Sequence record: NC_048196.1
From: Escherichia phage vB_EcoM_Schickermooser
Length of the DNA stretch: 64,000 nt
Direction: 5' to 3' (one strand)
A program made the translations under genes and the position numbers. Below the pieces are notes generated by a model that saw only the letters and a list, made by a program, of their open reading frames with translations, had not been told where the DNA came from and ran no database searches. Of the stretch, positions 18,385 through 51,854 are shown piece after piece (position 1 is the stretch's first letter; each line of letters starts with the position of its first letter).

Positions 18385-18428
18385 GCTAGAACCCACCTAA
18401 ATCGAACAGAGACGCTCTAAAATAGAAA

Positions 18429-18450
18429 AGGCACCCACTTGGGTGCCTTT
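18429..18450. terminator. bidirectional terminator between convergent genes
   Basis: 10-bp stem AAGGCACCCA/TGGGTGCCTT with A-run upstream and T-run downstream. Confidence 0.55.
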
Positions 18451-18453
18451 GTT

Positions 18454-18726
18454 TTATTCTTCGTTAGATTGCGTCTCAGACGCGTTAAATTCGGTTTCAG
18501 TACAACTTGCTAGGTAACTTATATTTTGCATCACTACAACTACAGGTGTTTGAAGTTTATCTTCTAGCCCCGCAGCCACTTGAGCCAAGGCATTATCAAT
18601 ATTTGATTTCCTAACGCCTGTTCCATGTCCTGTTGCCAAGTAAAGATTACCTTCCCCTTTTTGTGTAGCATTGGCAAAGTAGTAAACGTAATGTGCAAGG
18701 TAGTAATCACGGATTTCTTCAGTCAT
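18454..18726 (-). CDS. hypothetical protein
   Basis: AGGAGAA SD upstream on minus strand. Confidence 0.5.
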   Translation of the reverse strand: MTEEIRDYYLAHYVYYFANATQKGEGNLYLATGHGTGVRKSNIDNALAQVAAGLEDKLQTPVVVVMQNISYLASCTETEFNASETQSNEE

Positions 18727-18769: not shown

Positions 18770-19585
18770 TTATTTGTTTAAGTGGTCTTCGACCATTTTA
18801 ATGAAACCTTCATTGCTGAAGGCTGTTGCAGCTTTTTCTCGGTAAACAAAAACTCCACGATCTTCATAGAGAAGTGTTTCTTCGTAATTAACTCCAGGGT
18901 TAACTACAACCATTTTTGTACCCATACTAAGTGCAGGAAATAATTCCCAATTAAAATTGATAACTTGGTTTGAACATCCTACTACTACAACCAAATCTTG
19001 CATGGTCAAAGTATCGAACAAGTGAGCCATATCTGCATACAAAGGTGCAGCCTCACCAAAAAATACAACATTAGGCTTCACCCAGTTATAATCATCTATG
19101 TTTATACTATTGTAACCAATATCTACCAGTGTTTTGTAATCTCCAGGATGCATACGGTAAACTACTTCAGGAAGATATCCGTGTACGTGAATAACAGAAT
19201 CTCTGTCTACACCTGCTCGCTCTAGTAGATCATCAACGTTTGTTGTCAAGTTTACTATTTGGTTAGGATATTCCTTAAACCACTTTGCTATTTGAATATG
19301 TGCAGCATTAGGTTGTACATCTTTAAGCTCAACACGTCTTTTGTTATAAAATTCGTGTGTTTTGGCATACAAATCCATACCGTTCTCGTCTACACCACCG
19401 ACCACTGGAAGATCTGGAGATGTTCTAACACGATAACCTGCTTGGAAAGCTCCAATATCGCAGACCTCTTCTAAATCATATTCTTCCCATAAAGCACGAC
19501 CACTATCTGTGTCTGTTCTAAATGTTCGAATCCCACTGTCTGCACTTAAACCTGCACCGCTTACAAAAATCACTCGTCTTGGCAT
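18770..19585 (-). CDS. Sir2-family NAD-dependent deacylase/ADP-ribosyltransferase
   Basis: GAGLSADSGIRTFR matches the sirtuin GAG(I/L)S..GI..FR signature. Confidence 0.65.
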   Translation of the reverse strand: MPRRVIFVSGAGLSADSGIRTFRTDTDSGRALWEEYDLEEVCDIGAFQAGYRVRTSPDLPVVGGVDENGMDLYAKTHEFYNKRRVELKDVQPNAAHIQIAKWFKEYPNQIVNLTTNVDDLLERAGVDRDSVIHVHGYLPEVVYRMHPGDYKTLVDIGYNSINIDDYNWVKPNVVFFGEAAPLYADMAHLFDTLTMQDLVVVVGCSNQVINFNWELFPALSMGTKMVVVNPGVNYEETLLYEDRGVFVYREKAATAFSNEGFIKMVEDHLNK

Positions 19586-20055
19586 TCTTCCTCCTCAAAT
19601 GGATCATAAGAATTGTACTCGTAAGTATCATCTTCTGAAAATTCTACTTCGAAATAAATATCAAACTCTGCAAACAGACGTAGGATGTTAGCCATGCTGT
19701 AATAATTATCGTAGGCAGATTCAGCTTCATAGTAAACATAAAGCAAATGGTTAGCCTTATCATCTTCCAAATATTTCCCGTCTGCATACGCATAGTCTGC
19801 ATATGCTTTACCTGCATCTTCCACAAGAGAACGATCAAGCAGAGTAGGAAATGGTTTCTCTTTTTCTTTTAGTTTGCTCACTAACCAATGTGCAATATCA
19901 TTCCATTCTGCATCCATACCACTAAAGCAACTTGCTTCTTCTCCAAAAGAAGCTTCTCCTAAATCGCCACTAATACGAATAACATTAGATGAATTATAGC
20001 CACACGTTTCACAATCAGAGTAACTATTATGCACATTGACATTTACTTGAAACAT
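19570..20055 (-). CDS. acidic hypothetical protein
   Basis: 161-aa ORF rich in D/E/Y. Confidence 0.5.
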   Translation of the reverse strand: MFQVNVNVHNSYSDCETCGYNSSNVIRISGDLGEASFGEEASCFSGMDAEWNDIAHWLVSKLKEKEKPFPTLLDRSLVEDAGKAYADYAYADGKYLEDDKANHLLYVYYEAESAYDNYYSMANILRLFAEFDIYFEVEFSEDDTYEYNSYDPFEEEECQDE

Positions 20056-20113
20056 ATTCCCTCCTATAAAAGAAAAGCCCCCTGAAACAGGAGGCTTTGT
20101 TCAGATGCTGGCA

Positions 20114-20767
20114 CTATACCAGACTTTGTAGGTATTTGTCAAGGGCTTCTTGATCGCCTTGACAAACATAGCAACGGAAGTCTTGAGCCGAAGGTTGTTT
20201 ATTTTCATCCCAGTCCCAATAAACATTACCCTTATAACGTGAACCAGGAAACTCAAAAGAGGCTGTATGTGTAATGTATCCTGGGCCACCAATGAAATCA
20301 CAGAATGAGAATTGGGGGTATGCCGCCTTTACTGCCTCAATAAACCAAGCTTTACGATCTAAAGCTTCATTGATGCTATACGCATGTCTCTCCATTTCTT
20401 CCCACGTTTTCCAGACACTTCTCTCATCAGGAGAAAAGACAAGCCATTCTGGAAGGTATAGAGTGTCATAGTAATCATCATATTCGATCTCGGAGGCGCA
20501 CGAAGCTGACTCCTCCAGTTTTGAGTAATCAAAAGCAGAATATACCCACCAACCATCTTCCAGTAACGCTTTGATAGGGACGAAGCCTTTATCAGCATAT
20601 TGATCGAATTGTTTGACACGGTGGCTTGTGCAGTCTTCAAACTCACATTCTAAACGATATGCACCTTTTCGACGAGCCTCAAGACCGTGTGTACTGAAAA
20701 TAACAACACTTCCTTCACCATCATTACGATCTACTTGATAAGCAACCACTGGTTTTGAATTTGACAT
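20114..20767 (-). CDS. hypothetical protein
   Basis: 217-aa ORF. Confidence 0.5.
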   Translation of the reverse strand: MSNSKPVVAYQVDRNDGEGSVVIFSTHGLEARRKGAYRLECEFEDCTSHRVKQFDQYADKGFVPIKALLEDGWWVYSAFDYSKLEESASCASEIEYDDYYDTLYLPEWLVFSPDERSVWKTWEEMERHAYSINEALDRKAWFIEAVKAAYPQFSFCDFIGGPGYITHTASFEFPGSRYKGNVYWDWDENKQPSAQDFRCYVCQGDQEALDKYLQSLV

Positions 20768-21450
20768 TATTTCTCCTTATCTAGAAGATTGTTAGACAAA
20801 AACACTGCACGAGCAAAACCACGTGCGGTTAGTGATCTAAGTTGTTTTGTTTTTGCACTAGCTCCACCTAAGCTTTTCCAACCCCAGAAGCAGCCTATAT
20901 GATCTACTGGTTTCTTCACTGGTTGAACAAAACCATTGCCGTGCCAAATACAAGTTTTCTTTGTATACCCATCACGGGTAGGCATTTTAGGATGAAAGCT
21001 TCCTTCCTCTTCAAACAAATACCCACCATACTCATAAGGATCAAAGTAAAAATCGGGTTTACGCCATAAGGTTGAAAGTTTACCTACTGGGTTCTCAATC
21101 ATCCAAGGAACATTATATTTGTTACCCAAAGCTTCCACTACACGAATATTAGCTAAAGCTTCATCCAATTCCTCTGTGCTGCGTTCGTGTTTGCTGCCAC
21201 TACCTGCTAACATAGTGCAAGGTGGAAATCCAAAAATAATATCGGGTTTAGGTATCCCATGATCTTCAGGGTTGAATGTAGAATCTATCCAGGCATTCAC
21301 ATAGGTTATGTTTGGGTGCTCCATCCTAACCTCGTATTTACCGTGATCCCCTTCATCAGCGTTTACACAAAAACACTTGTGACCTGCTTCGGCATAACGT
21401 AACACCATGATCCCAGATCCGTCAAACATAGACAAAACTGTTTTACTCAT
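20767..21450 (-). CDS. C5-cytosine methyltransferase-like protein (variant motifs)
   Basis: ATG 21450 after GGAGGGG; FDGSG (motif I-like), GFPPCT (PC motif IV-like), ENP (ENV-like). Confidence 0.45.
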   Translation of the reverse strand: MSKTVLSMFDGSGIMVLRYAEAGHKCFCVNADEGDHGKYEVRMEHPNITYVNAWIDSTFNPEDHGIPKPDIIFGFPPCTMLAGSGSKHERSTEELDEALANIRVVEALGNKYNVPWMIENPVGKLSTLWRKPDFYFDPYEYGGYLFEEEGSFHPKMPTRDGYTKKTCIWHGNGFVQPVKKPVDHIGCFWGWKSLGGASAKTKQLRSLTARGFARAVFLSNNLLDKEK

Positions 21451-21856
21451 TACCCCTCCATTCAAGACAAGCCATAACTTTACGCCAATCACTTTCTGTA
21501 AGAAAAATCTCGTTTGCTTTCTTCCACAAATCTAAATCGTGAAGGGTTGGAATACGGTATGTTAGTTCACAGAATCTATGCTCTTCTTCTGTAATATAAC
21601 CAAAATGCAGAGCCACATCGTGAAACCAACACCAACCATGCATCTCTCGAACAACATGGTCATGTTGAGACATTATTTTATGCCGTAAACCTAACCAACA
21701 AGGAACAGATACTTTAGTAGTCTTTAATCTGTGATCAACAGTATTAGAGTATTCAATAATAGCTGTCAGTTTCAATCGTGCTTTTTCTAAATCCTCATGC
21801 GTCACTTTGAAATAACTTTCTGAAAGATATCCACACATATTAATAACCTCCTTCAA
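21443..21856 (-). CDS. hypothetical protein
   Basis: 137-aa ORF overlapping neighbours by a few bases. Confidence 0.5.
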   Translation of the reverse strand: MKEVINMCGYLSESYFKVTHEDLEKARLKLTAIIEYSNTVDHRLKTTKVSVPCWLGLRHKIMSQHDHVVREMHGWCWFHDVALHFGYITEEEHRFCELTYRIPTLHDLDLWKKANEIFLTESDWRKVMACLEWRGNE

Positions 21857-22781
21857 AAGGCTTTACTACATGTTGATTAGCTTTAAAACGTTCAACATAG
21901 TCGTTTTCGCCCATGTTTTCATATAGCTTAATAACAACATAAAAGTTTTCCCAAGCATATTCCCTAAACCAACCACTAGTGATGGATGTGCAGACTTTAG
22001 ATAAAGCCATTATAAAACTTTGCTTAGGGGTTGGACCTCCGATCTCTCCACCGAAAGGAATTTGTGAACGTTCCAAAGCCAAAACACACGCTTCTTCATA
22101 AACACCTAACAGGCGCACATGTTTTGGTTGAGCAAAAAACTTTTCTTTGCTGGTCATAACTTCACTTCCATCTTTCATATAAGATTTATATGCCGGAGCA
22201 TCCATTACCGCGATTGCTTCATGGATAGAATCATGATCATAAACATACGGAACCTCATCACCTTTAAAAAAGTCTTTACTTTTTACGTTTAAGTTCGGAT
22301 GAGAGTAAGTGTATGTTTCTTTCTCACGCAACTCATAAATACTCTTAAGATTTTCTGGGATCTTTGCGCCCAGTGACCGCATGAAATGAATATCTTTCAT
22401 AGTTTTAAAGAAGTGAGGACTATCCTTTTTAAAACGATGACTCATTTTAAGAAGGTAGAGCACATCTAAAGGAGCAACAACATGTCCCGCGTAAGTTCGA
22501 CGAACATCATCAGAATCTTCACAATAACTAATCAAAGCTTCTGTGCTATCTCCTTGAGAAGCAATATCGTATTCCAAATGTGCACCAGCTATCATTTTGA
22601 CATGGCCTTTGTTTCCTTTACGTTCTACAAGTTCAACAAACTCCTCTTGAGAGAACATTTTTGATAATTCTTCCCACTCTTGTTCTGTACACAGGTAATC
22701 TAAATCTACACAAGGGCGATACAAGTCTTTTCCCATGTCCATAGCATGAATTTGCAATGCACGGCTACCAATTAACACCAT
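21840..22781 (-). CDS. hypothetical protein, possible nucleotidyltransferase fold
   Basis: N-terminal LIGSRALQ...DLDYL resembles GS...D.D of minimal NTase folds; GAGGAG SD. Confidence 0.45.
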   Translation of the reverse strand: MVLIGSRALQIHAMDMGKDLYRPCVDLDYLCTEQEWEELSKMFSQEEFVELVERKGNKGHVKMIAGAHLEYDIASQGDSTEALISYCEDSDDVRRTYAGHVVAPLDVLYLLKMSHRFKKDSPHFFKTMKDIHFMRSLGAKIPENLKSIYELREKETYTYSHPNLNVKSKDFFKGDEVPYVYDHDSIHEAIAVMDAPAYKSYMKDGSEVMTSKEKFFAQPKHVRLLGVYEEACVLALERSQIPFGGEIGGPTPKQSFIMALSKVCTSITSGWFREYAWENFYVVIKLYENMGENDYVERFKANQHVVKPFEGGY

Positions 22782-22811
22782 AATATTTCTCCTCTATTGG
22801 TTGATAGGTTA

Positions 22812-22840
22812 AGTTTATCAAGCTTCCAGATTCCTGTCAA
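22812..22840 (-). promoter_or_regulatory. sigma70-like promoter, minus strand (TTGACA-N17-TAAACT)
   Basis: immediately downstream of terminator hairpin, upstream of the 22781 start. Confidence 0.5.
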
Positions 22841-22845
22841 TAAAA

Positions 22846-22863
22846 AACCCGCCGAAGCGGGTT
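22846..22863 (-). terminator. intrinsic terminator, minus strand
   Basis: AACCCGC-CGAA-GCGGGTT hairpin followed on minus strand by TTTTTTA. Confidence 0.55.
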
Positions 22864-22871
22864 ATTATTTA

Positions 22872-23144
22872 CTAACACATTGAGGAAGAAGAGATCCAAA
22901 CACCTCTTGTGGTTAAACCGTTTTCATCCAACTCTACACCATAATCTTCACAAATGAAATCAATATAGTGATCTGCGGCTGGCGTTCCTGTAGGGTAATA
23001 AGTTTCTCCGTTACCGTAGTCACCTATCCAAGCTTGTTCCTGAAACTGTTCACAAAGTTCTTCAATCTCCTTACGAAACTTTCTTTGTGCTTGTTCCATC
23101 TCTTTAACTTTCTTTTTTATCAGCAGTTCGCCTTCAGACTCCAC
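22872..23144 (-). CDS. small acidic protein, 'SS-C tail' family member
   Basis: C-terminus GVWISSSSMC; two paralogs downstream. Confidence 0.5.
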   Translation of the reverse strand: MESEGELLIKKKVKEMEQAQRKFRKEIEELCEQFQEQAWIGDYGNGETYYPTGTPAADHYIDFICEDYGVELDENGLTTRGVWISSSSMC

Positions 23145-23153
23145 AATCTCTCC

Positions 23154-23414
23154 TTAACAGCTACTACTGTGCCAAACGCCTTGAGAATTAACGACGAAAC
23201 CATCATCACCTTCACCATAACAAGAAGAGGATTGCCAATCTTCAAAACAGATTGCGTCATTTTCTAAACTAAGACCAAAACCAGCATCTTCAGCTTCTTT
23301 TGTAAGTTCGTCCACTAAAGCCATAATAGCTTGGGCTTTTTCAGTTAATTCTTCAACATTACGATCACTCATTAGTATTTCTCCTCCGGTTGGAAAACTG
23401 AACGACAAGCCCAC
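23154..23414 (-). CDS. small acidic protein, 'SS-C tail' family member
   Basis: C-terminus GVWHSSSC. Confidence 0.5.
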   Translation of the reverse strand: MGLSFSFPTGGEILMSDRNVEELTEKAQAIMALVDELTKEAEDAGFGLSLENDAICFEDWQSSSCYGEGDDGFVVNSQGVWHSSSC

Positions 23415-23686
23415 ATACTAGCTTCTTTTAAATGTTTAATAGCACAACGGATTTGATCAATACGCTCGTATGCAACATCTAATTCTTTTTCTGTGCCGTC
23501 AAAAGACCCATGATATGCTTCACAATACTCTTCCTCTAAAGCTTTGAAGATTAAACCTAAACGCTCTTCTGCATCTTTAATAGCGTTAACCTTGCCAATC
23601 TTATCGTCAGTATGCGCCTTATAACCTTTGATATCTTCGATTCCCACTTTACCTCCTATTAACAACTTAAAGAAGATGGATGCCAA
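23372..23686 (-). CDS. hypothetical protein
   Basis: 104-aa ORF. Confidence 0.45.
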   Translation of the reverse strand: MASIFFKLLIGGKVGIEDIKGYKAHTDDKIGKVNAIKDAEERLGLIFKALEEEYCEAYHGSFDGTEKELDVAYERIDQIRCAIKHLKEASMWACRSVFQPEEKY

Positions 23687-23856
23687 TTTGTCCCAGTATT
23701 CTCATTTTCATCTTCTGGATCATAATAACCCCCCATCCCATATTCAGGGGAGAAACGGAAACCTTCTCCAGTCTCGTCTGCTAACTGCTCTGCTTCCGCT
23801 AAAGCATCATAAGCTGCTTTTACGGCTTCTTCTACTGTTTTAAACTTGGTCGTCAT
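23659..23856 (-). CDS. small acidic protein, 'SS-C tail' family member
   Basis: C-terminus TNWHPSSLSC. Confidence 0.5.
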   Translation of the reverse strand: MTTKFKTVEEAVKAAYDALAEAEQLADETGEGFRFSPEYGMGGYYDPEDENENTGTNWHPSSLSC

Positions 23857-24130
23857 AAAATTTCTCCTCTCCTAAAGACATGGTGACATGAAATGCACGA
23901 TATGTAAATTCGTTGTCCGTTGTGTTTGAATAAAACTCAAATTGAACAACACCGTCTTGAGAAGACAAATACATGCCAATTTGAACTGTACCTTCTGGTA
24001 CCAGGTAAGCATACTCTGGGCGTAGTGTTACATTGTAAAAATAAAGTTCCCCAACACCCATTTCATCCCAAGCTTCCCAAGCGGTAACGAAGTTACTTTC
24101 AAAACTTGTTACTGATCCGAACTCTGCCAT
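23840..24130 (-). CDS. hypothetical protein
   Basis: 96-aa ORF. Confidence 0.5.
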   Translation of the reverse strand: MAEFGSVTSFESNFVTAWEAWDEMGVGELYFYNVTLRPEYAYLVPEGTVQIGMYLSSQDGVVQFEFYSNTTDNEFTYRAFHVTMSLGEEKFYDDQV

Positions 24131-24621
24131 AAAACCTCCTCAATCTTGTAGTTTGACTCCATCTCCAACACATTTCCACGAACGTCTCTCCGAAGAAAGG
24201 CATAAGCTTTATTAGGTATTGTAGACTCATATTTAACCATATCTGGCACAGCAAAAGATACTACTACTCCTGCTGGACTTCTGTCAAGAGCCTTATTAAT
24301 ATTTCTAAGGATATCATTAGCCAAGATCTCTGCCAATTCTCCAAGAACAGTTTCGGTTATATCTTTATATCCCATTAAGTATTTGTTGATATCTTTCATC
24401 TCTGTATTGTTCAGAGTATAATCTAAAGGATAGAAATTCAAAGCGGAGTCACTTTTATGTGTCCACATGAAATGTACCCGATCCGAGCAGAATCGTAACC
24501 CTCTACGAAGAATATCTTCTACAACAGGGAGAATTTCTTTTGTCACATCATTAACCATGTTGTAATCTAAGATTTCTGCCAAATTTGTTCTTTGTTCACC
24601 ACGTTTACGTTTAGGAATCAC
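24109..24621 (-). CDS. hypothetical protein
   Basis: 170-aa ORF. Confidence 0.5.
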   Translation of the reverse strand: MIPKRKRGEQRTNLAEILDYNMVNDVTKEILPVVEDILRRGLRFCSDRVHFMWTHKSDSALNFYPLDYTLNNTEMKDINKYLMGYKDITETVLGELAEILANDILRNINKALDRSPAGVVVSFAVPDMVKYESTIPNKAYAFLRRDVRGNVLEMESNYKIEEVLWQSSDQ

Positions 24622-25192
24622 TTGTTATTGCCCTCATTACCAAAGGTCGTAGAAAATCGTAAATCTCTTGTTTTGTTTTCCCACGAATGTTTAAACAAGG
24701 AACATTATTGGCTTTAGCTATCTTCCAAGCCGTAGCTGTTCCACCTTTTGCATCTCCATGTTTATCAGTATTAGCACAAGCCAACAAGAAACATGATGGA
24801 GCAGGATTCTCCAAATCTCTACCTAACACTTGATGCACATTACGTTGGTGCAATTTTCTAGCACCCTGCTTAAGCTTTTCATAGGCTGGGTGAACATCTT
24901 TGATCCATTGCACAGAGATAGCATAGTTCATTGTATCTGGTTTTGCAAGAACAATAACATCCCCTGGAATCTGATTACCTTTGAAATTTTCCCAAGGAAC
25001 ATAAATCTCCTTGTTAGTAGGATTTTCAGACTCTTGGACACCTGTTTCAAAAGCAGAATCACTACCCTCTGCCTTCCCAGACCTTAATTTAAACCCAAGG
25101 TTTGAAAGCCATTTCCCTATACCTACCATCAAAGCCCACTCTTCTTCGGATATGTCTCTACTTCCAACTCCCGTATAGAACAGTTCTGCCAT
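24611..25192 (-). CDS. DprA/Smf-like (SLOG-type Rossmann) protein
   Basis: ATG 25192 after GAGGTGA; YTGVGSRD and SGKAEGSD motifs. Confidence 0.45.
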   Translation of the reverse strand: MAELFYTGVGSRDISEEEWALMVGIGKWLSNLGFKLRSGKAEGSDSAFETGVQESENPTNKEIYVPWENFKGNQIPGDVIVLAKPDTMNYAISVQWIKDVHPAYEKLKQGARKLHQRNVHQVLGRDLENPAPSCFLLACANTDKHGDAKGGTATAWKIAKANNVPCLNIRGKTKQEIYDFLRPLVMRAITSDS

Positions 25193-25199
25193 AATCACC

Positions 25200-25508
25200 T
25201 CAACAAGTAATTTCAAAAGGTGTATACGGTTCCGTATTTCTCATGATCCAAGGACTGCTAGGATTGCTCGGATCATAAGGACCAAAAGGTTTTATGGTCG
25301 GTTGTGTTTCTTTCTTCTGAATCTCTTCAAAAATACGACGAAGTTCAGAATATTCTTGATCCACCATAAGATTCGGTGCATCTGATTCTACAGCTTGCAG
25401 GTTATCTTCCTTAAGAACAATCTCACGAACAAGATTAACATCTTCTGTTTCTAAGATAACTTCTTTACGGATATTACCTACACTTTGAATAATTGTAATC
25501 TTATACAT
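25200..25508 (-). CDS. hypothetical protein
   Basis: 102-aa ORF. Confidence 0.5.
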   Translation of the reverse strand: MYKITIIQSVGNIRKEVILETEDVNLVREIVLKEDNLQAVESDAPNLMVDQEYSELRRIFEEIQKKETQPTIKPFGPYDPSNPSSPWIMRNTEPYTPFEITC

Positions 25509-26251
25509 TAATCCTCCTCAAGAGTTGAATAAAATTGAAGACCACCGTCCATATCGAAATAAGCAAATGTTAAGTTATTATTGAACACAGATCCAGTATC
25601 CATATAAACACGATTCGCATTGATAATAGGTGTTTTTACATAAGAGTGTCCATGAAACACATAATCCACACCCATCACAACAGGAAGTTTCATTCCCTCT
25701 TTAGCACAGTCTACCATATCTCTGTCCCACATAAGTGCTTCAGCAAAACGGTTTTCCTGTGTTTTTGTCATCTTCGAAATGTATTCTGGAATATCTGTTA
25801 CAGGGAGATATTCCAAAGAAGATGGATACCCACCATGAATAAACGCAAGTTTCATGCCTCTGTAGTTAACAATGAGAACAACAGGTAAATCTTCTGTCAT
25901 CATTGCTAAGGCTGTAGCTCCTTCTTCACCACATTCTTCAAAGACCGTATATCCTCCATTTTGATACCAACACTCGTAGTAGCTACGATCTCCTTCCAGC
26001 ATACCTTTAATCATCATGTCTTCATGATTGCCACGAATAGCGTAGCGATTGTGTTTACGAGTAAATTCTAAAACACAACGAAAGTTTTGCTTTCCACGGT
26101 CAGTAAGATCTCCTAGAGATACAACCACATCTGTATCTCGGATACCTAACTTTGCCTTTCCTTTTTCATACAAATTATAACAACCGTGTAGATCTCCAAT
26201 TATAAAAAGATCTTGATCGCTTTTAACAGTAATTTCTCTGTGTATGATCAC
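25508..26251 (-). CDS. Ser/Thr protein phosphatase (lambda-phosphatase-like metallophosphoesterase)
   Basis: GDLHG, GDLTDRG and GNHE motifs. Confidence 0.7.
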   Translation of the reverse strand: MIIHREITVKSDQDLFIIGDLHGCYNLYEKGKAKLGIRDTDVVVSLGDLTDRGKQNFRCVLEFTRKHNRYAIRGNHEDMMIKGMLEGDRSYYECWYQNGGYTVFEECGEEGATALAMMTEDLPVVLIVNYRGMKLAFIHGGYPSSLEYLPVTDIPEYISKMTKTQENRFAEALMWDRDMVDCAKEGMKLPVVMGVDYVFHGHSYVKTPIINANRVYMDTGSVFNNNLTFAYFDMDGGLQFYSTLEED

Positions 26252-26577
26252 TTATCCTCCTCAAAATCTAAGAAAATAAAAATATTCACCTTTCCTTCAA
26301 TCTCTTGTTCTAAAACAAGATCGGCAAATTCTGCATAAGCTTTCTCTTCAACTTTTTCAATATGTTCTGCGGCATCTTTAAAAGGTGTATCCCCATCCAC
26401 CTTTACTAATAAGAAAAGAGATCGCATTTCGACGCTTTTACTGTTACGAGGAAGGAAATCTACAGCTTCAACAATTCTCCAACCCAAATAGCCAGGGGTT
26501 TTATGAATCTCCCCTAAATACTTTTCTAAGATTTTACGACCCTCGTCGATAAGGGCTTGTTCTGTAGTAATTTCCAT
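26248..26577 (-). CDS. hypothetical protein
   Basis: 109-aa ORF. Confidence 0.5.
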   Translation of the reverse strand: MEITTEQALIDEGRKILEKYLGEIHKTPGYLGWRIVEAVDFLPRNSKSVEMRSLFLLVKVDGDTPFKDAAEHIEKVEEKAYAEFADLVLEQEIEGKVNIFIFLDFEEDK

Positions 26578-26587: not shown

Positions 26588-27178
26588 TCAAATTATTAAC
26601 GAAACCGCATGACTAAATCTTGGTTCAGATATAACCTCTGCTACAGTCACATATGTATCGTGCAGCCAAAAAGATTCTACTCTACAAACACAAATACCGT
26701 TGATAATGAAATCTACACAGGATTTATTATTTTCGCACACCTGTTGACTATAAACAACCCCTAAAGAGTCATAAAGTGATCTCACTGTTGCTACCATTTC
26801 ATCTGTTTCGTCTTCCTGTGAAACAAAGAAAACGAATACAGACAAGTTATTAGCGAAAGTATTGCTATTCTCTACTTCAACCGACTTACAAGGTAAAAAG
26901 GAGTAATATTTACCGTTAGGTATCAATTTCGCCTCAACCTGGTTAAGTATGCTTTGAGATGGTTTTGTTACATAAAAAAGATTTTCTGTTGGGTTTTCAA
27001 CATTACTCCTTACTATGCAACGAGTGGGGTTCGAAGGATCAAAAACATGATCGAAATCGACACACACAGGTAAGTTAACAACTTTAAACTTTTTGCTAAG
27101 AATGCTTACTGCTGTAAAAATCAAACCAGCATTTATTTTGCCAGTGAAAGTTGAACGCATAACTACTCCTCGGATCAT
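26588..27178 (-). CDS. hypothetical protein
   Basis: 196-aa ORF. Confidence 0.5.
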   Translation of the reverse strand: MIRGVVMRSTFTGKINAGLIFTAVSILSKKFKVVNLPVCVDFDHVFDPSNPTRCIVRSNVENPTENLFYVTKPSQSILNQVEAKLIPNGKYYSFLPCKSVEVENSNTFANNLSVFVFFVSQEDETDEMVATVRSLYDSLGVVYSQQVCENNKSCVDFIINGICVCRVESFWLHDTYVTVAEVISEPRFSHAVSLII

Positions 27179-27866: not shown

Positions 27867-28376
27867 TTAAACAAAATAAAATGGTTGAGAGAGGCCCAAA
27901 CGATTCTTTGGGTCGTATACATACCAAGCGTATGCTGTCTTATCTGTTCCACCTGCAACAAACGAAGGACGTTCTGAAAGGACTATAAGGTTTGTTGGTG
28001 GATTCTTTTGATGGAACTCTCGTCGTTTCTTTGACTCCAAGAAGCCCAACCGAAGAAGATAAATACAAACATCCGCCTCTTTTAAGCTCTTTTCCAAGAA
28101 CTCCATTGCTAACTTAAATGGAGGATTTGTGATTATAATGTCGGGACGATTTTCCCATTCATGACTAAAATAATCTTTACCTTCTTCAAGTTCGCAATAT
28201 TCTGAACCTTCAGGAAAATGGCGATAAATCGCTTCAGCTTCACCTCTGCAAGGTTCTGCAAAAACCCAACCTTCTTCCTTTAGATTTTTGAAATCTATAA
28301 CACTAAACAAACTATTGATTGCTTTTTGCGGTGTCGGATAATAATCGCTCGTTGGGCGATCATAATCTAATGCCAT
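27867..28376 (-). CDS. small Dam-like N6-adenine DNA methyltransferase (putative)
   Basis: DIIITNPPF resembles catalytic motif IV (D/N)PP(Y/F); 169 aa. Confidence 0.45.
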   Translation of the reverse strand: MALDYDRPTSDYYPTPQKAINSLFSVIDFKNLKEEGWVFAEPCRGEAEAIYRHFPEGSEYCELEEGKDYFSHEWENRPDIIITNPPFKLAMEFLEKSLKEADVCIYLLRLGFLESKKRREFHQKNPPTNLIVLSERPSFVAGGTDKTAYAWYVYDPKNRLGLSQPFYFV

Positions 28377-28818: not shown

Positions 28819-28834
28819 TGCCCCCGAAGGGGCA
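28819..28834. terminator. intergenic stem-loop TGCCCC-CGAA-GGGGCA
   Basis: GC-rich hairpin flanked by T-rich sequence on both strands. Confidence 0.4.
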
Positions 28835-28839: not shown

Positions 28840-29532
28840 TTAAATAGCGGTTCCTTCGAAATCCGCCACATTTACGAGATTAATATTTTCAGATTTAGAA
28901 GTCAAGTTGTTTTCTGCAACAGATTTTTCTTCAGTATCCGCCTCGTTACCTGCCACGTTACGAGGTTCTTCTTCACCGTAGGGATTACCGAATTTCAAAA
29001 GATTGATCAATTCTTCTTTGGAGAAGTTTTCTAAATCATCATCTGTTAATTCAATAATCTCGTCTTGTTCTTCAATAAATGTTTCACCACCAGAAAAAGC
29101 ATCTCGCTTTTTAGCTACTTCCATAGCCTGTTCTGGTGTTGCCCCTGCATCAAGAGCAGCTAAAGCAAAGTCTGACCCGCTTCCTACCGCATAATATTCT
29201 TCATCAATCGGATATGCACGTGTTGGGTTATTACCTTCGTGCAGGAAAATACGTCCGTCTGGATGAACAACAAGTGCAATAAACTCTTCATCTTCTTTAT
29301 CTGGATCAGAGTGAATCATCAAACCAGGGACAGCATCACGTGCTGCTTCGCACTGTAGATTTTGTTCAAACCATTGAAAGAAAGAAAGCACGGAGGTCAG
29401 ACGACCAGCACCACCTACAAGGTAATCTCCAATTTTTCGGACCTTTTTGAAATTAATAGAATCTACACGTCCACCAAAAGTTACCTTACCGTCACTCAAA
29501 ATCTTATTTTTGGTTGCAATAATTGTCGTCAC
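28840..29532 (-). CDS. HslV/proteasome-beta-like Ntn-hydrolase peptidase
   Basis: N-terminus MTTIIATKN (Thr right after Met), GGAGR and AVGSGSDFALAA resemble HslV; acidic C-terminal extension. Confidence 0.55.
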   Translation of the reverse strand: MTTIIATKNKILSDGKVTFGGRVDSINFKKVRKIGDYLVGGAGRLTSVLSFFQWFEQNLQCEAARDAVPGLMIHSDPDKEDEEFIALVVHPDGRIFLHEGNNPTRAYPIDEEYYAVGSGSDFALAALDAGATPEQAMEVAKKRDAFSGGETFIEEQDEIIELTDDDLENFSKEELINLLKFGNPYGEEEPRNVAGNEADTEEKSVAENNLTSKSENINLVNVADFEGTAI

Positions 29533-46460: not shown

Positions 46461-47186
46461 TTACTTATTAATAATACCTGCAATATTAGGTTTGACAAAG
46501 GTCGATGGTTTCATGATCTTACCTTTATCATCAAAGAACACATACACTTTCTGTTTTTCATTATAAACAGCATGAACACCAGTGTATGCCCCTTCTGGAC
46601 GATTGGCATTTCGTTCTTCAATTGCAGCGCATTCTTGTGCAATGGCTGAATCGATATCCGAAGTTTTCCAAGTTTTCAGCAACTGTTGTTTAGTTGGATA
46701 CTTGGAATCATTACTTTTCAATACCTCTTTAATAACTTTCTTTTCTGGATATTTTGAACGGATTAGAGTGTCACGAGACATACGCATAATACCAGCAGCC
46801 ATTAGTGCCATTTGAACTGGCTCTGTAAATGTTTGTTCCAAAGCATCAAAATCAGTATACACAGTTGGAGTAAAAACATCGCCTACAGCATAGTCCAAGA
46901 AATTCATCGTATGTTCTTCACCAAAGAACATGTAGGTCAGATAACTGGATACTACAAAAATATCCGCTGCTGCATCCAAGAGTTCTACATGATCGTTTAC
47001 TTTCGCGGCTGTTTCATACTCTTTAAGCTCTTCACGAACGAATCCGATTTGGGACATAAATAGCTCTTGAGTGAATTCAGGTTGTTCACCACCTCGTGCT
47101 TTAGCATTCCAATCAATCACGTGCTTCGCTGCATTTTTGAAAAATTCAGTATCGAACTTAATATCTTTAAAAAAATTCTCGATCAT
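46461..47186 (-). CDS. hypothetical protein, possibly MazG-like NTP pyrophosphohydrolase
   Basis: all-alpha E-rich segment EELKEYETAAK...ELLDAAADI. Confidence 0.35.
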   Translation of the reverse strand: MIENFFKDIKFDTEFFKNAAKHVIDWNAKARGGEQPEFTQELFMSQIGFVREELKEYETAAKVNDHVELLDAAADIFVVSSYLTYMFFGEEHTMNFLDYAVGDVFTPTVYTDFDALEQTFTEPVQMALMAAGIMRMSRDTLIRSKYPEKKVIKEVLKSNDSKYPTKQQLLKTWKTSDIDSAIAQECAAIEERNANRPEGAYTGVHAVYNEKQKVYVFFDDKGKIMKPSTFVKPNIAGIINK

Positions 47187-47195
47187 TATAACTCC

Positions 47196-47378
47196 TTATT
47201 TAAAATAGCTTTCTAGAAAGTTGCTAATATTTACTACAGTCTCACCCATGTAAATTCCTGCGAAACCGAAAACAAGCATACGTGGAATATTGAAATACCA
47301 TTTATCCGCTGGAAAAGATGCCAGAATTACAATAGCAATTGCTATCAGCATCATAAGAATTGTTGCTAAAATTATCAT
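47196..47378 (-). CDS. small membrane protein (60 aa)
   Basis: ATG 47378 after GGAGG; single TM; ATGA overlap with upstream ORF. Confidence 0.4.
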   Translation of the reverse strand: MIILATILMMLIAIAIVILASFPADKWYFNIPRMLVFGFAGIYMGETVVNISNFLESYFK

Positions 47379-47569
47379 AAAAATGCCTCCAGGTATTTTG
47401 AACAATGATAAGCTAAGAAACAAGAAACTACCGCATACCCAACTCCAGACATACATGAATCAATCACAACACATACGGTTCTTTTCTTTGAATTCTTAGG
47501 AAAGTTTTCCGAAGCATTCATACAATAAAAAGAAAGTACACTGAAAACGATTAAAATGGCTAAGAACAT
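47375..47569 (-). CDS. small membrane protein (64 aa)
   Basis: AAGGAGG SD; hydrophobic N-terminus MFLAILIVFSVLSF. Confidence 0.45.
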   Translation of the reverse strand: MFLAILIVFSVLSFYCMNASENFPKNSKKRTVCVVIDSCMSGVGYAVVSCFLAYHCSKYLEAFL

Positions 47570-47578
47570 TTTTCCTCC

Positions 47579-48706
47579 TTACTCTGCTGGTTCCCAAGTG
47601 CCTGGGATCATTTCTCGAATACGAACACCAACAGGTTTTGTTGGAATACCTTCATCTGAAAATTCTTCATACTCTATTTCAACGAACTGATTAATCAAGG
47701 TAGAAGCATTCTCTGCTTTACGATAATTGATAGTCTCATGAGCATCTTTACGCATTAAGAATTCGACTACTTTACCATTTTCCATCTCACCTGTCAACAC
47801 TCCATCGCCATTTTTATCGCTTTTTGAATTTGTTACTTTAACTTCAAGGGTGTGGCGAGGCTTACGTTTAATAACGTCATAAGAACGTTTATCAAATTCG
47901 TAAACTCCGTGAGCATTACGATATACTACACCTTCAGCTTTCTCAAGTAAAGCTTTTTCATAGAAAGCGTCAAACTGCTCTTGGTTTTCAATATACTCTG
48001 TATGAACTACACAAATAAGCTCGTCAAGACCATAATCTTCAACTACTGCCTTAAGAGCAGCAAGAGCATCAACACGTTTTTCAAACGGTAGACCTGGAAC
48101 TGGAATATCGTATACGTAATAATTCAGCAAAGGTGTATTTGCATTATGCTTCTTCCAAGCACTGTTAATTTGTTGCAGACTAAGGACACCTAACCCAGCA
48201 AACACTTCACCATCAAGAGGATGACCAACAACTTCACTAATAAAGTTTGGAATACCTTTCCAATGAGGTGGCAGGTTATACACTTCCCCAGCTTTTGATA
48301 AACACTCCCCTTTCATGTTAATCATAGAACGTAACCCGTTCAGTTTGTATTGTGCATAACCAGGGAACACAACCCTTTCAGGATAATCTTTATAATCCTG
48401 GCATTTCATTGGTGTGGAAGGAACATGGTTTTCAGCTTCTTCTTTTGTTTTATAATAGCCATTCTTTAACTGTTTTGTCCATTTGGCAAAAGCTTCAAGT
48501 TCAGCTTGTTCTTCCGGTGTTGTTTCATTGGAACGACCAATGTTTTTTGCTTCTGCTGTATAAGATTTTTCTGTGATCTTTCCACCTACTCTTCCATGAG
48601 CTACAGTAACAACTGCACCATCTGTATATACTGTCCACTGTTTAAGTTTTCCTTTTGAATCTTTACCATACAGCGTTTGATTTGTTTGTTGCATTAGTCC
48701 TCCCAT
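47579..48706 (-). CDS. ATP-dependent ligase (nucleotidyltransferase family; DNA-ligase-like)
   Basis: motif I KLNGLR (KxDG variant), motif III LDGEVF, motif IV EGVVYR, motif V-like VIKRK. Confidence 0.5.
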   Translation of the reverse strand: MGGLMQQTNQTLYGKDSKGKLKQWTVYTDGAVVTVAHGRVGGKITEKSYTAEAKNIGRSNETTPEEQAELEAFAKWTKQLKNGYYKTKEEAENHVPSTPMKCQDYKDYPERVVFPGYAQYKLNGLRSMINMKGECLSKAGEVYNLPPHWKGIPNFISEVVGHPLDGEVFAGLGVLSLQQINSAWKKHNANTPLLNYYVYDIPVPGLPFEKRVDALAALKAVVEDYGLDELICVVHTEYIENQEQFDAFYEKALLEKAEGVVYRNAHGVYEFDKRSYDVIKRKPRHTLEVKVTNSKSDKNGDGVLTGEMENGKVVEFLMRKDAHETINYRKAENASTLINQFVEIEYEEFSDEGIPTKPVGVRIREMIPGTWEPAE

Positions 48707-48915
48707 TTAAAAACTGAAATTTTCAATCTGTTACACACTTCATCCAAATCTGCGTCGAGTAACGTTGTAGATGTTGCCAACATATAATCAATGCTTGTGA
48801 AACCTTGCCCTTTGGCATAGTCAAGCATATCTTCATACATATCTTCAAGATCACCGTCATCAAAAGTAGCTAGAAAATCCTCTTCTCCGCTACGAACATA
48901 AAATGCAGTACTCAT
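48694..48915 (-). CDS. hypothetical protein
   Basis: 73-aa ORF. Confidence 0.4.
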   Translation of the reverse strand: MSTAFYVRSGEEDFLATFDDGDLEDMYEDMLDYAKGQGFTSIDYMLATSTTLLDADLDEVCNRLKISVFKWED

Positions 48916-49103
48916 TCTTCTTCATCCCAAGATTCAAAAGCACAACAATCATCGGTTTCTATAATACCAACACGTCCGCAGGTATTGCAAGTGATTTTAT
49001 CCCCGTAGAATAAATAATTTTTATCACCCTCTGTGTTTACAGTTATGTCATTACTACCACAAGGGCAAGTCAGCCAACCAACAACAACGATATCTTTTTT
49101 CAT
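48912..49103 (-). CDS. small zinc-ribbon protein
   Basis: CPCG ... CNTCG. Confidence 0.45.
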   Translation of the reverse strand: MKKDIVVVGWLTCPCGSNDITVNTEGDKNYLFYGDKITCNTCGRVGIIETDDCCAFESWDEEE

Positions 49104-49112
49104 AATCCCTCC

Positions 49113-49439
49113 TTAAGCGTTCAGTTCGTTGTTGAGTTCGTAAATCTCTTCTTGAAGAGCATCAATCTCTTCCTCCAAACGGGAGATCTCTTCTTTTAGA
49201 TATACCATTTCGGATTCTTTCTCTTCTAATTCATTTTCAAATTTTACTTTATTAGCCTCATTTTCATAATGCAGTTCAGCGTAATCATCACGCATTTGTT
49301 CAATAAGATGAATCAGAGACAAGATATAATTGTCTCCCGTTTCATCACGCCACTCTTCACCGTGACGGAGAACGGTAATTCGTCCAGTATCTTCATCTAA
49401 AATTGTCTCATATTTACGATCATCTGTATAAATCTGCAT
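49113..49439 (-). CDS. coiled-coil protein
   Basis: C-terminal repetitive EE..E..L heptad-like sequence. Confidence 0.5.
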   Translation of the reverse strand: MQIYTDDRKYETILDEDTGRITVLRHGEEWRDETGDNYILSLIHLIEQMRDDYAELHYENEANKVKFENELEEKESEMVYLKEEISRLEEEIDALQEEIYELNNELNA

Positions 49440-49448
49440 TATTTCTCC

Positions 49449-49853
49449 TTATTGAAGTTTAAGTGAACCACGAAGACGTTTCTCTTGCTGATCACGGATA
49501 TATTGTGGAACCTCGTGAATTGAATCATTACCGTGCCTATTTTCAACAATTAAAGAGATAACTTGATAACCAAACTCTTCAGCAAGAGCTAGATAAGGTT
49601 TAAGTTCTTTCTCTGTGGTTGAAGTATTAGAAACAATAATCTTGTTAAGATTAGATGCCATAGCATCACGAACAATACCCTGACACCATGCGTGTGCTTT
49701 ACCTACATTTTCTGGCTTCCAATCGTAAACACCACTCTCTGTGTAATGATATTGATCTGCCTCACAGATAGGCCAATAACCTTCAGAAATAATTTCTGCT
49801 ACTGTAGATTTACCAGCACCTGAAACGCCACGTAAAATGATAAGTTGTTTCAT
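49449..49853 (-). CDS. P-loop kinase (polynucleotide-kinase-like)
   Basis: Walker A GVSGAGKST; 134 aa; adjacent to ligase and phosphoesterase. Confidence 0.55.
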   Translation of the reverse strand: MKQLIILRGVSGAGKSTVAEIISEGYWPICEADQYHYTESGVYDWKPENVGKAHAWCQGIVRDAMASNLNKIIVSNTSTTEKELKPYLALAEEFGYQVISLIVENRHGNDSIHEVPQYIRDQQEKRLRGSLKLQ

Positions 49854-50786: not shown

Positions 50787-50787
50787 A

Positions 50788-51339
50788 TTACTCTCCTTTG
50801 ATTATTTTGTGATGGTCTACAGTCACGATATCTCGTTTACTCATCATAGAAATTATCTCATCAAAATGCAAGATTTTTCCGTGTGCATCCCAACCCACAT
50901 CTAACATTTTACCATAAGCTTCATCAGGGAAAGATCCGTGGGAATGCCCGTGTAGCATGATTGATCCACGACCTTGTTTATTCCAGGAGGCCATAGGGTA
51001 ATGACTTAAGACGAAGAACAGCTTCTGATATTTCACTTCGTCATAATACACCACTTCCCCATACTCTGCAAGCACTTCTCGGTGTTTGCTGTAGTCATGG
51101 TTCCCAACACAGTAGGTGATATCTCCTTGGAGACGAGAAGCAATTTTACGGGTATCTTCTTCAGTTCCGAAACAGAAGTCGCCCAAATGCCACATCTTAA
51201 CACCAGGAGTAGTAGCACATTTGTTCCATGCTTCGATCAAGGCTTCTGTCATGTGGTCCATATCTTCCCACGGACGATATTCAGGAGCAAACTCTCGAAT
51301 ACGTTTATGCATAAAATGCAAATCGCTTGTAATAAACAT
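50788..51339 (-). CDS. calcineurin-like metallophosphoesterase
   Basis: SDLHF, LGDFCFG, GNHD and HGHSH motifs. Confidence 0.65.
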   Translation of the reverse strand: MFITSDLHFMHKRIREFAPEYRPWEDMDHMTEALIEAWNKCATTPGVKMWHLGDFCFGTEEDTRKIASRLQGDITYCVGNHDYSKHREVLAEYGEVVYYDEVKYQKLFFVLSHYPMASWNKQGRGSIMLHGHSHGSFPDEAYGKMLDVGWDAHGKILHFDEIISMMSKRDIVTVDHHKIIKGE

Positions 51340-51695: not shown

Positions 51696-51701
51696 TGTTT
51701 C

Positions 51702-51845: not shown

Positions 51846-51854
51846 GTTCTCTCC

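Follow-up and report, generated by a model that had tools for sequence, protein, structure and literature searches.

Sirtuin, nucleotidyltransferase, SLOG and phosphatase genes of a Phapecoctavirus: probably a mosaic of accessory genes rather than a single enzyme system

Introduction

Do a Sir2-family protein, a nucleotidyltransferase (NTase), a SLOG/DprA-like protein and a lambda-phosphatase-like enzyme encoded within 8 kb of a phage genome act together? The question is raised by positions 18770-26251 of the window, a stretch of 64,000 nucleotides from a phAPEC8-like coliphage of the genus Phapecoctavirus, where the initial annotation proposed an anti-defence island. In our analysis, the interval is best read as a mosaic: its accessory genes are independent of one another, occupy at least three transcription units and do not form a single enzyme system. 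We give this reading a probability of about 0.6.

Results

Gene content and transcription units

The four open reading frames are where the initial annotation had placed them, all on the minus strand, and their co-location is real. The interval contains the following genes:

18770..19585, minus strand: Sir2-family protein, 271 aa, CobB-like phage-specific clade (PF02146, E=1.9e-22)
19570..20055, minus strand: 161-aa protein, phrog_9509, stop overlapping the Sir2 start by 16 nt
20114..20767, minus strand: 217-aa protein, phrog_8514
20767..21450, minus strand: orphan C5-cytosine-type DNA methyltransferase with FDGSG and FPPC motifs (phrog_757, 6.7e-85)
21443..21856, minus strand: 131-137-aa protein, phrog_16551, overlapping the NTase stop
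21840..22781, minus strand: DUF7277+DUF7275 pol-beta-type NTase, 313 aa
22872..23144, minus strand: Ser-tail protein a, 90 aa, acidic, ends GVWISSSSMC, phrog_899
23154..23372, minus strand: Ser-tail protein b, 72 aa from the annotated start, ends GVWHSSSC, phrog_899
23372..23647, minus strand: Acb2/Vs.4 homologue, 91 aa, predicted anti-CBASS sponge for cyclic oligonucleotides (PF24729, 7UQ2)
23659..23856, minus strand: Ser-tail protein c, 65 aa, ends TNWHPSSLSC, phrog_899
23840..24130, minus strand: 96-aa protein, phrog_4991
24109..24621, minus strand: 170-aa protein, phrog_8569
24611..25192, minus strand: DprA (SMF)-type SLOG protein with one domain, 193 aa when read from the annotated ATG
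25200..25508, minus strand: 102-aa protein, phrog_15301, packed between the phosphatase and SLOG genes
25508..26251, minus strand: lambda-phosphatase-like (NinI/PrpA-like) binuclear metallophosphoesterase (Metallophos, E=2.7e-13)

The domain calls made earlier for the four enzymes were all borne out, those of Sir2 and phosphatase by domain HMMs. The C5 methyltransferase, the Acb2/Vs.4 homologue and the three paralogous Ser-tail proteins had been missed. The methyltransferase, for which we used the annotated start taken from ESCO13, matches the PADLOC model MTase_II/DruM (1.4e-4), and a second orphan methyltransferase, of the N6 type, lies at 27867-28376. A Pfam search with the 161-aa protein gave no match.

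The interval forms the distal end of a 36-kb leftward gene block, which is probably expressed early or middle because its content is mostly nucleotide-metabolism, DNA/RNA-processing and small hypothetical genes. The phosphatase, SLOG, Ser-tail and Acb2 genes make up one string with overlaps or gaps within about 10 nt, and co-transcription is therefore likely. Gene packing, together with promoter-like and terminator-like sites that are all consensus matches only, would split the interval into at least three transcription units:

20074..20098, minus strand: terminator-like hairpin, 11 bp, 6 GC, with T-run
20142-20113, minus strand: promoter-like TTGACA-18-TATAGT
22863-22846, minus strand: hairpin with T-run, between Ser-tail protein a and the NTase
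22840-22812, minus strand: promoter-like TTGACA-17-TAAACT, after the preceding hairpin

The hairpin in the intergenic stretch 22812..22863 also matches features labelled 'terminator' in other phage records.

Co-inheritance of the four enzymes

Homologues of the NTase were grouped at 60% identity into 28 clusters. A Sir2 gene lies within 10 kb of the NTase in 2 of these, SLOG and phosphatase genes in 4 each, and Acb2 in 1. All four enzymes occur together in two related NTase lineages that differ in arrangement (L006-L009 versus L010-L012 and L017), and the co-location is not conserved past Stephanstirmvirinae-like lineages. Sir2, NTase, SLOG protein and phosphatase are no co-inherited module. 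Nevertheless, as the linkage is kept in two lineages, some selection for it is possible. The view of the four as defence-related types found no backing in the PADLOC defence models, none of which matched Sir2, NTase or SLOG protein at E<=0.01, while the phosphatase gave one weak match (PDC-S10, E=0.0045).

The sirtuin and its genomic context

The best solved relative of the sirtuin is E. coli CobB (1S5P, E=7.6e-19), with which it shares the Rossmann NAD-binding motifs, the N and D of TQNID, the catalytic His and FGE. It differs in having Thr for the Gln of TQNID, in an insertion at residues 52-72 and in lacking the four-Cys zinc module, and its score is far below the CobB equivalog cut-offs. 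As evidenced by comparison with phage homologues, GAG(10-12), N116, D118, H135 and FGE do not vary; the zinc-module region is free of Cys in three of four homologues and holds one lone Cys in the fourth. Judged by its sequence, the protein belongs to a Zn-less phage clade. The protein is CobB-like and not a ThsA/DSR/HerA-like Sir2.

Homologues are present in 982 phage records, including T5 (52% identity), where the gene adjoins nrdD, and the clade extends over T5, rV5-like and jumbo phages. In Vequintavirinae the sirtuin sits between RNA ligase/cREC/kinase and MazG/DNA ligase genes, in the order RNA ligase-cREC-Sir2-MazG in Vequintavirus and RNA ligase-cREC-kinase-Sir2-DNA ligase in Mydovirus. 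This context fits the published prediction of an RNA-repair role (Iyer et al. 2022, PMC9503650, section 3.7.3) rather than the NAD depletion suggested earlier. Such a role is predicted from gene context; the sirtuin would spend NAD+ on an RNA end or a protein and would not deplete it. The rV5/Mydo sirtuins are of the same clade (46-56% identity), and our phage likewise encodes RNA ligase 1, an AAA_33 kinase, cREC, a calcineurin-like phosphoesterase and MazG. Here, however, this module (46.4-52.2 kb) is without the sirtuin, which lies 27 kb away, coupled to the 161-aa protein.

The nucleotidyltransferase, its Ser-tail partners and the phosphatase

The NTase has a MenT/AbiEii-like fold with complete pol-beta catalytic motifs: the hGS..DxD motif that the initial annotation had noted as GS...D.D, a third acidic residue, and invariant K112 and D130, 18 residues apart, compared with 15-22 between motifs III and IV of MenT1, 3 and 4. 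It departs from these enzymes in a large, conserved helical C-terminal domain of 150 residues, in which many His, Asp and Tyr positions are invariant, and in its confinement to viral sequence, namely phage genomes (733 phage records), viral contigs, some giant viruses and a few MAG contigs (only 9 in a set of 185,579 species genomes). Genes for small proteins lie immediately upstream, as does that of MenA1 (68 aa), but here in arrays of 1 to 6, varying by lineage, with a common C-terminal tail. These acidic proteins ending GGW-x-SSS-x-x-C precede the NTase in 74 of 80 viral loci and 8 of 9 MAG loci (26 of 28 clusters overall), and the motif marks 18.6% of ORFs upstream of the NTase versus 0.3% elsewhere. 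The NTase would work with the Ser-tail proteins, which may be substrates nucleotidylated on serines, targeting adaptors or antitoxin-like regulators.

The phosphatase is homologous over its full length to lambda NinI (1G5B, E=5.5e-27) and E. coli PrpA/PrpB and has all PPP metal-binding motifs (GDLHG, GDLTDRG, GNHE). It differs from them by about 25 extra residues and scores below the equivalog cut-offs, and unlike NinI it belongs to a lytic myophage, beside hypothetical genes. In jumbo phages it is adjacent to the NTase (1-2.4 kb), which hints at a possible link; the phosphatase may undo or complement the NTase/Ser-tail step.

These observations also bear on a distinctly less probable reading, in which the enzymes form an RNA/tRNA repair and modification set that works with the RNA ligase/kinase/cREC module at 49-52 kb against host anticodon nucleases and tRNA-targeting toxins. 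The MenT-like NTase would rebuild or extend damaged tRNA 3' ends, the phosphatase would heal 2',3'-cyclic or 3'-phosphate ends, and the sirtuin would remove 2'-phosphates with NAD+, in a KptA-like manner. Besides the sirtuin clade's place in RNA ligase/PNK/cREC modules of Vequintavirinae and the NTase-phosphatase adjacency, this would accord with a weak match of the phosphatase to bacterial Pnkp (TIGR04075, 3e-5), with the 2',3'-cyclic phosphodiesterase activity that lambda phosphatase reportedly has, and with the 10 tRNA genes that the phage carries along with its RNA ligase module. However, Sir2, NTase and phosphatase lie 27-30 kb from that module in different transcription units, the constant partners of the NTase are the Ser-tail proteins and not RNA-repair genes, sequence searches matched the NTase neither to CCA-adding enzymes nor to DUF1814, and we know of no biochemical precedent for a sirtuin acting on an RNA 2'-phosphate.

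The Acb2/Vs.4 homologue

By family membership, the product of 23372-23647 would be the sole clear counter-defence gene of the interval. It matches PF24729 (2.1e-16, 60 bits, cut-off 27) and T4 Vs.4 (PDB 7UQ2, E=2.9e-28), having the same length as the latter at about 60% identity, and is thus assigned to a validated anti-defence family that sequesters CBASS cyclic di- and trinucleotides. Translation starts at a GTG 8 nt after AGGAGG. Tyr9 of 'IKGY' and Lys24, spaced as Y11/K26 of PaMx33 Acb2, are the Tyr and Lys required for cGAMP binding in the dinucleotide pocket. Unlike T4 Vs.4, the gene resides in a Phapecoctavirus, flanked by two Ser-tail genes. Its allele is 66% identical overall to that of sister phages such as ESCO13, while the flanks are about 97% identical, and the divergence is in the central third (residues 36-70).

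The SLOG protein and the case for a coordinated island

The SLOG protein has the motifs of DprA. It differs from DprA/SMF and ShosA in being a single domain, without SAM-like and C-terminal domains, and its fold is just as near to LOG-like proteins and molybdenum cofactor carriers. It may bind ssDNA or a nucleotide. Its neighbours in distant phages are PhoH, NrdAB and ThyX: among 68 distant loci, PhoH was found in 21, NrdA in 16, the phosphatase in 4, and Sir2 or Acb2 in none.

An island in which the four enzymes act together on NAD+ or nucleotide second messengers to defeat Thoeris, CBASS or Sir2-based immunity is unlikely. For example, the NTase would make decoy cyclic nucleotides, the SLOG protein would bind or cleave gcADPR, and Sir2 and phosphatase would process ADPr derivatives. 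The fold of SLOG is common to the gcADPR-binding ThsA domain, viral SLOG domains have been predicted to counter ADPr-derived signals (Iyer et al.), and some phage MNT-like NTases are known to produce cGAMP and to block TIR-STING (Ho et al., bioRxiv 10.1101/2022.06.09.495361). Like the latter, our NTase is a phage pol-beta-type enzyme near methyltransferases and other accessory genes, but the signature of cyclic-dinucleotide-making phage NTases, GS-x-AY[GAN]T-x4-SDxD, is absent, a distance of 19 residues separates GS from DxD, and our protein is far larger. It resembles tRNA-modifying MenT toxins instead. Acb2 does share its close-packed string with the SLOG protein and phosphatase, and the four genes are linked in two related lineages. 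Against this stand the missing co-inheritance, the four enzymes' lack of PADLOC/anti-defence family matches bar PDC-S10, a CobB-like sirtuin tied to RNA repair genes elsewhere, and the DprA motifs of the SLOG protein with its PhoH, Nrd and ThyX neighbours in other phages. What survives of the proposed island is the Acb2/Vs.4 member, the orphan C5 and N6 methyltransferases and the likely co-transcribed string; the four named enzymes as a system do not.

Discussion

That the genes are ordinary replication and nucleotide-metabolism helpers without a conflict role, clustered by shared expression timing only (the DprA-like protein as a recombination mediator, phosphatase and sirtuin as regulators of host or phage proteins, the NTase in housekeeping), is improbable: the SLOG neighbours in distant phages, the continuation of the 36-kb block into nrd, thyX, ligase and exonuclease genes and the 95-99% identity of the region across the genus would suit it, but Acb2 and both orphan methyltransferases belong to counter-defence families, phages that are otherwise about 97% identical diverge strongly in the central part of Acb2, and the variable number of Ser-tail genes is typical for conflict genes.

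We therefore favor the mosaic of independent accessory genes. Both orphan methyltransferases may shield the phage DNA from restriction, and the block as a whole would serve host takeover and counter-defence by way of separate mechanisms.

Organization of the block

Rightward genes fill the window up to ~18.4 kb, and between ~54 kb and 18.45 kb the genes point leftward. The ~18.4-kb switch point coincides with a sign change of the GC skew and with a two-way hairpin (18427-18450). The interval 18770-26251 accordingly forms the distal end of a leftward block of 36 kb. This block also encodes nrdAB, thyX, DNA and RNA ligases, exonucleases, PhoH, a lysozyme and, in a lytic phage, a dTDP-rhamnose pathway (~31.8-35 kb, minus strand; 22382-25660 in L001, a sister phage with another Acb2 allele). 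The latter comprises glucose-1-phosphate thymidylyltransferase, 3,5-epimerase and two epimerase/reductase genes, two of these genes being absent in phage anhysbys. At the switch from the leftward to the rightward block, which holds the terminase and structural genes, lie ten tRNA genes (55947-57871, plus strand: Met twice, Arg, Ser, Asn, Thr, Gly, Gln, Pro and Ile).

The 8.2 kb around the block are 99.5% identical to Escherichia phages vB_EcoM_ESCO25, 3A1_SA_NWU and Ro121c4YLVW, and the block shares 95-99% identity with dozens of further Phapecoctavirus (Stephanstirmvirinae, phAPEC8-like) genomes of ~150 kb each. Records of these relatives already carry the names Sir2, DNA methyltransferase, DprA-like protein and NinI-like phosphatase, the remaining genes being hypothetical; the block is known sequence with domains of known type. 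Note that 'Campylobacter phage B15' (MG065650.1) and 'Acinetobacter phage vB_AbaM_ABPW7' (OP562383.1) are 99-100% identical to E. coli Phapecoctavirus in this region, which probably reflects wrong host labels or contaminated samples.

From a 109-aa ORF down to position 22872 neighboring genes either overlap or leave gaps of ~10 nt at most, and two further runs follow.

Gene order of the block, with the nearby N6-type methyltransferase
27867-28376, just outside the interval: N6-type DNA methyltransferase (catalytic motifs)
26248-26577, minus: 109-aa ORF, head of the packed string
25508-26251, minus: phosphatase, followed by a 102-aa ORF
24611-25192, minus: SLOG protein, followed by a 170-aa and a 96-aa ORF
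23659-23856, minus: Ser-tail protein c
23372-23647, minus: Acb2/Vs.4 homologue, in one string with the phosphatase and SLOG genes
23154-23372, minus: Ser-tail protein b
22872-23144, minus: Ser-tail protein a
22863-22846: hairpin and T-run, then a TTGACA-17-TAAACT site (consensus match only)
21840-22781, minus: nucleotidyltransferase (NTase), head of an overlapping run, followed by a 131-aa ORF
20767-21450, minus: C5-type DNA methyltransferase (catalytic motifs), followed by a 217-aa ORF
20098-20074: second hairpin and promoter-like site (consensus match only)
19570-20055, minus: 161-aa ORF, overlapping Sir2 by 16 nt
18770-19585, minus: Sir2, followed by a third hairpin (consensus match only)

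Terminator-like sites, all of them consensus matches only, are about twofold enriched, with 17 found against 7.8 expected from shuffled sequence. Unrelated 46-kb E. coli siphophages contain sequences 95-97% identical to the hairpin AACCCGCTTCGGCGGGTT (22846-22863) that separates Ser-tail protein a from the NTase, and several of these phages have them annotated as 'terminator'. An HslV/proteasome-like peptidase (28840-29532, minus strand; PF00227, 1.1e-5) is found just upstream of the block, with a terminator-like hairpin (28819-28834) in between. Two inherited names were discarded: 'histidyl-tRNA synthetase' for ORF 26588-27178 (minus strand; phrog_4806) had no backing from Pfam, NCBIfam or PDB sequence searches, and the 90-aa 'Sir2-like' ORF 18454-18726 (minus strand; ESCO13 gp056) matched only phrog_15991, of unknown function, again with no support from Pfam, NCBIfam or PDB.

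Domain assignments

The initial annotation had named four enzymes, Sir2, NTase, SLOG/DprA-like protein and phosphatase, and all four calls held, with complete catalytic motifs in the NTase, the sirtuin and the phosphatase. Profile searches, the check it had proposed, clearly confirmed Sir2 (PF02146, 80.5 bits against a gathering cut-off of 24, 1.9e-22; CobB, 1S5P, 7.6e-19), but left the SLOG protein below the DprA threshold (PF02481, E=0.068, 12.8 bits against 29.6). The phosphatase is a full-length homologue of lambda phosphatase (1G5B, 5.5e-27) with every metal motif in place (GDxHG, GDxxDRG and GNHE at residues 19-23, 47-53 and 74-77). As to the interleaved 'small unknown ORFs', these do exist, but the ones overlooked were the Acb2 homologue, the C5 methyltransferase and three phrog_899 paralogues.

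The SLOG protein has the Rossmannoid SLOG fold, and GVGSR and RSGxAxGxD are invariant in its family, matching the DprA motif VGSR...SGxAxGID. These motifs align weakly with DprA structures 3MAJ and 3UQZ (E 0.1-0.5), and PF02481 or PF18306 is found in a small number of homologues. In contrast to full DprA it is a single domain of 193 aa that lacks the SAM-like N-domain and the C-terminal domain, and unlike LOG phosphoribohydrolases its family shows no PGGxGTxxE, but GGT(A/R)TA, not followed by a conserved Glu.

The NTase displays hG[GS]...[DE]h[DE], a third acidic residue on the next strand and an alpha/beta NTase fold, as in the pol-beta superfamily. Pfam returned DUF7275 and DUF7277 only, with no match to DUF1814 (MenT/AbiEii), and a profile search of PDB sequences gave noise and no MenT. 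K112 and D130 are invariant, and by their similar sequence spacing they may correspond to the active-site Lys and Asp of MenT motifs III and IV. The pattern GS-x-AY[GAN]T-x4-SDxD of the phage MNT-like enzymes that synthesize cyclic dinucleotides (Ho et al.) occurs in none of the called ORFs of the window; the NTase has GSRAL-x17-VDLD instead, and its assignment to that group was rejected. Its family is essentially viral, with 733 phage records against nine contigs, all of them from metagenome bins, in 185,579 species genomes.

The four enzymes are not one module

Linkage was analyzed in 80 viral and nine genome loci around NTase homologues, searched with all window proteins and grouped at 60% identity by single linkage into 28 clusters, the viral loci coming from one collection. 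Within 10 kb of the NTase, Sir2 was present in two clusters, SLOG and the phosphatase in four each and Acb2 in one. Around 68 distant SLOG homologues, Sir2 and Acb2 were never found and the phosphatase four times; the usual neighbors were PhoH (21), NrdA (16), an N6 methyltransferase (12), NrdB and ThyX (9 each) and the RNA ligase set (6-7). The four enzymes are not one module. The context of the DprA-like protein points to DNA or nucleotide metabolism, and it would bind single-stranded DNA or a nucleotide.

The anti-defence island that had been proposed survives in part: it does contain an Acb2 homologue, but its four enzymes form no module in the NTase and SLOG loci. PADLOC defence models did not match the four enzymes, save for a weak hit of the phosphatase (PDC-S10, E=0.0045). 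We favor a mosaic reading of the block, at a probability of about 0.6.

A zinc-free sirtuin from a clade with RNA-ligase neighbors in other phages

Among four phage sirtuin homologues compared, the NAD-binding residues G10-A11-G12, N116 and D118 of the TQNID motif and the catalytic H135 are invariant. The phage protein differs from CobB-type enzymes in a Thr that replaces the Gln of TQNID, and from CobB in lacking the four-cysteine zinc module, with no Cys between H135 and F175, where those of CobB are located. The clade lacks zinc-binding cysteines, yet the residues for NAD binding and catalysis are retained. With 85.9 bits the protein stays below the NCBIfam CobB equivalog cut-off of 320, and with 106 below that of the best subfamily (243). 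A defence-type SIR2 NADase such as ThsA, DSR or SIR2-HerA was considered and rejected, as the protein is CobB-like and no PADLOC model matched at E<=0.01. The overlapping 161-aa protein, with homologues seen in close relatives only, has a CxxC near its N-terminus, while the sirtuin itself lacks zinc cysteines.

The sirtuin family comprises 982 phage records, including T5 (52% identity), rV5-like (46%), Vibrio and jumbo phages. Its gene order is RNA ligase, cREC, Sir2, MazG in Vequintavirus and RNA ligase, cREC, kinase, Sir2, DNA ligase in Mydovirus, and the window holds the same RNA-ligase/cREC set, minus the sirtuin, at 46.4-52.2 kb (minus strand).

RNA-ligase/cREC gene set of the window
46461-47186, minus: MazG-like pyrophosphatase
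within 46461-52199, minus: DNA ligase
49449-49853, minus: AAA_33 kinase
49854-50786, minus: T4-type RNA ligase 1
50788-51339, minus: calcineurin-like phosphoesterase
51855-52199, minus: cREC

Whereas in Vequintavirinae the sirtuin lies inside such an RNA-repair-type module, in the window, where the module is complete, it is 27 kb away from it (46461-52199). The MazG-like protein may be the counterpart of the Atd1 family reported for Phapecoctavirus. Iyer et al. (PMC9503650) predicted a role in RNA repair for the main phage sirtuin clade from gene neighborhoods of this kind, and the Vequintavirus and Mydovirus contexts, together with the set at 46.4-52.2 kb, match the ones behind their prediction. 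The context of the sirtuin points toward RNA repair and away from NAD warfare, and the enzyme would use NAD+ on RNA ends or on proteins. A broader reading in terms of RNA or tRNA repair would agree with this context; we consider it unlikely.

An Acb2 homologue with two alleles

The Acb2/Vs.4 homologue starts with GTG, 8 nt downstream of AGGAGG, and scores 60.3 bits on PF24729 (cut-off 27) and 2.9e-28 against T4 Vs.4 (7UQ2). Its Tyr9, in 'IKGY', and Lys24 are 15 residues apart and correspond to Y11 and K26 of PaMx33 Acb2, both needed for cyclic-dinucleotide binding, with the residue context taken from mutagenesis primers (PMC10312549). Two alleles exist in the genus, one in the window (23372-23647, minus strand) and one in L001 (13973-14248), with 66% identity overall between flanks of ~97%. 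The divergence is concentrated in residues 36-70, and the 3' end of the gene is 89.6% identical in DNA sequence to T4-like phages. In other Acb2 proteins, the variable part is the region that tunes ligand range. The notion that half of the genus lacks Acb2, suggested by 30 against 60 records at >=95% identity, was rejected, as the rest carry the divergent allele.

Judged by its sequence, the Acb2 homologue, a member of an already known family, is the one assignable counter-defence gene of the block, and it would sequester CBASS signals; the methyltransferases would shield phage DNA. The papers examined on structural modelling of sponges and on phage transposon mutagenesis do not mention these genes. 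The sponge is one of the points in favor of the integrated NAD/nucleotide-signalling island of the initial annotation; given the sirtuin context and the scarce linkage, that island is very improbable. Plain housekeeping, consistent with the nrdAB-type neighbors of SLOG and at odds with a predicted sponge, we hardly credit either.

The NTase is paired with Ser-tail proteins

A family of small acidic Ser-tail proteins is the single constant neighbor of the NTase. As evidenced by the locus comparison, one to six tandem small ORFs lie on the same strand within 3 kb upstream of it in 74 of 80 viral and eight of nine MAG loci, or 26 of 28 clusters. The median values for these ORFs are 90 aa in length and -9 in net charge. 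The three phrog_899 paralogues of the window end in GVWISSSSMC (22872-23144), GVWHSSSC (23154-23372) and TNWHPSSLSC (23659-23856), and the consensus is G-G-W-[VI]-S-S-S-x-x-C, with Cys terminal in 175 of 183 distinct tails. As the search pattern required nothing but the W, a single S and a C near the end, the Ser at -3 and -4 (145/175 and 138/175) and the Gly pair represent conservation beyond it. Among ORFs in the zone upstream of the NTase 18.6% carry the motif, against 0.3% elsewhere in the same loci; in the window the pattern matches just one other ORF, which ends in NWGSFC and lies opposite the coding strand in the rightward block. No tail motif was found in the T4, T5 and rV5-like loci examined, where the NTase is likewise missing.

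A set of 54 diverse members gave 31 matches to phrog_899 (function unknown) and not one to Pfam, and a PDB profile search for a solved relative gave noise only. The W...C tail is not conserved in Gram-positive phages: the acidic protein upstream of the NTase in Brevibacillus phage Sundance has two YSSSYY repeats at its C-terminus, and no such protein is present in Streptomyces phage Blueeyedbeauty. In 11 loci of jumbo phages, a lineage far from Phapecoctavirus, the NTase is preceded by Ser-tail genes and followed, after 1-2.4 kb and on the same strand, by a lambda-type phosphatase gene (L019, L022-L024, L028-L030, L033, L035, L050 and L064).

The pairing appears to be undescribed so far, as the Ser-tail family has no Pfam entry and an incomplete library returned no paper for DUF7275, DUF7277, PF23940, PF23942, phrog_2141 or phrog_899. 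Taking MenT/MenA pairs and partner-AMPylating MNT enzymes as models, we infer a functional link in which the NTase would act on the Ser-tail proteins or be steered or restrained by them. Our tentative proposal, which we put forward as possible rather than probable, is a new, virus-only two-component system. Here a MenT-like NTase would nucleotidylate the serine-rich C-terminal tails, or the tails would target it or hold it in check, while the variable acidic N-terminal parts might direct each paralogue to its own host target. The eraser may be the lambda-type phosphatase, whose gene is next to that of the NTase in jumbo phages and 2.7 kb from it in the window.

Implications

As originally written, the finding changes little, for the block is present and annotated in dozens of near-identical coliphages that are therapeutic candidates. 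The evidence speaks against taking each phage Sir2, SLOG or NTase domain as a sign of NAD or nucleotide-signal warfare. The near-universal pairing of NTase and Ser-tail proteins, a gene pair of T4-like, jumbo and phAPEC8-like phages, offers a clean and cheaply testable hypothesis. If the proposed two-component system proves true, phage-host conflict would include a protein-nucleotidylation module of a new type. Phapecoctavirus phages are widely used in phage-therapy collections. The genus carries a predicted anti-CBASS sponge that had gone unannotated, and its two alleles, differing in the ligand-range region, may help to explain differences in host range.
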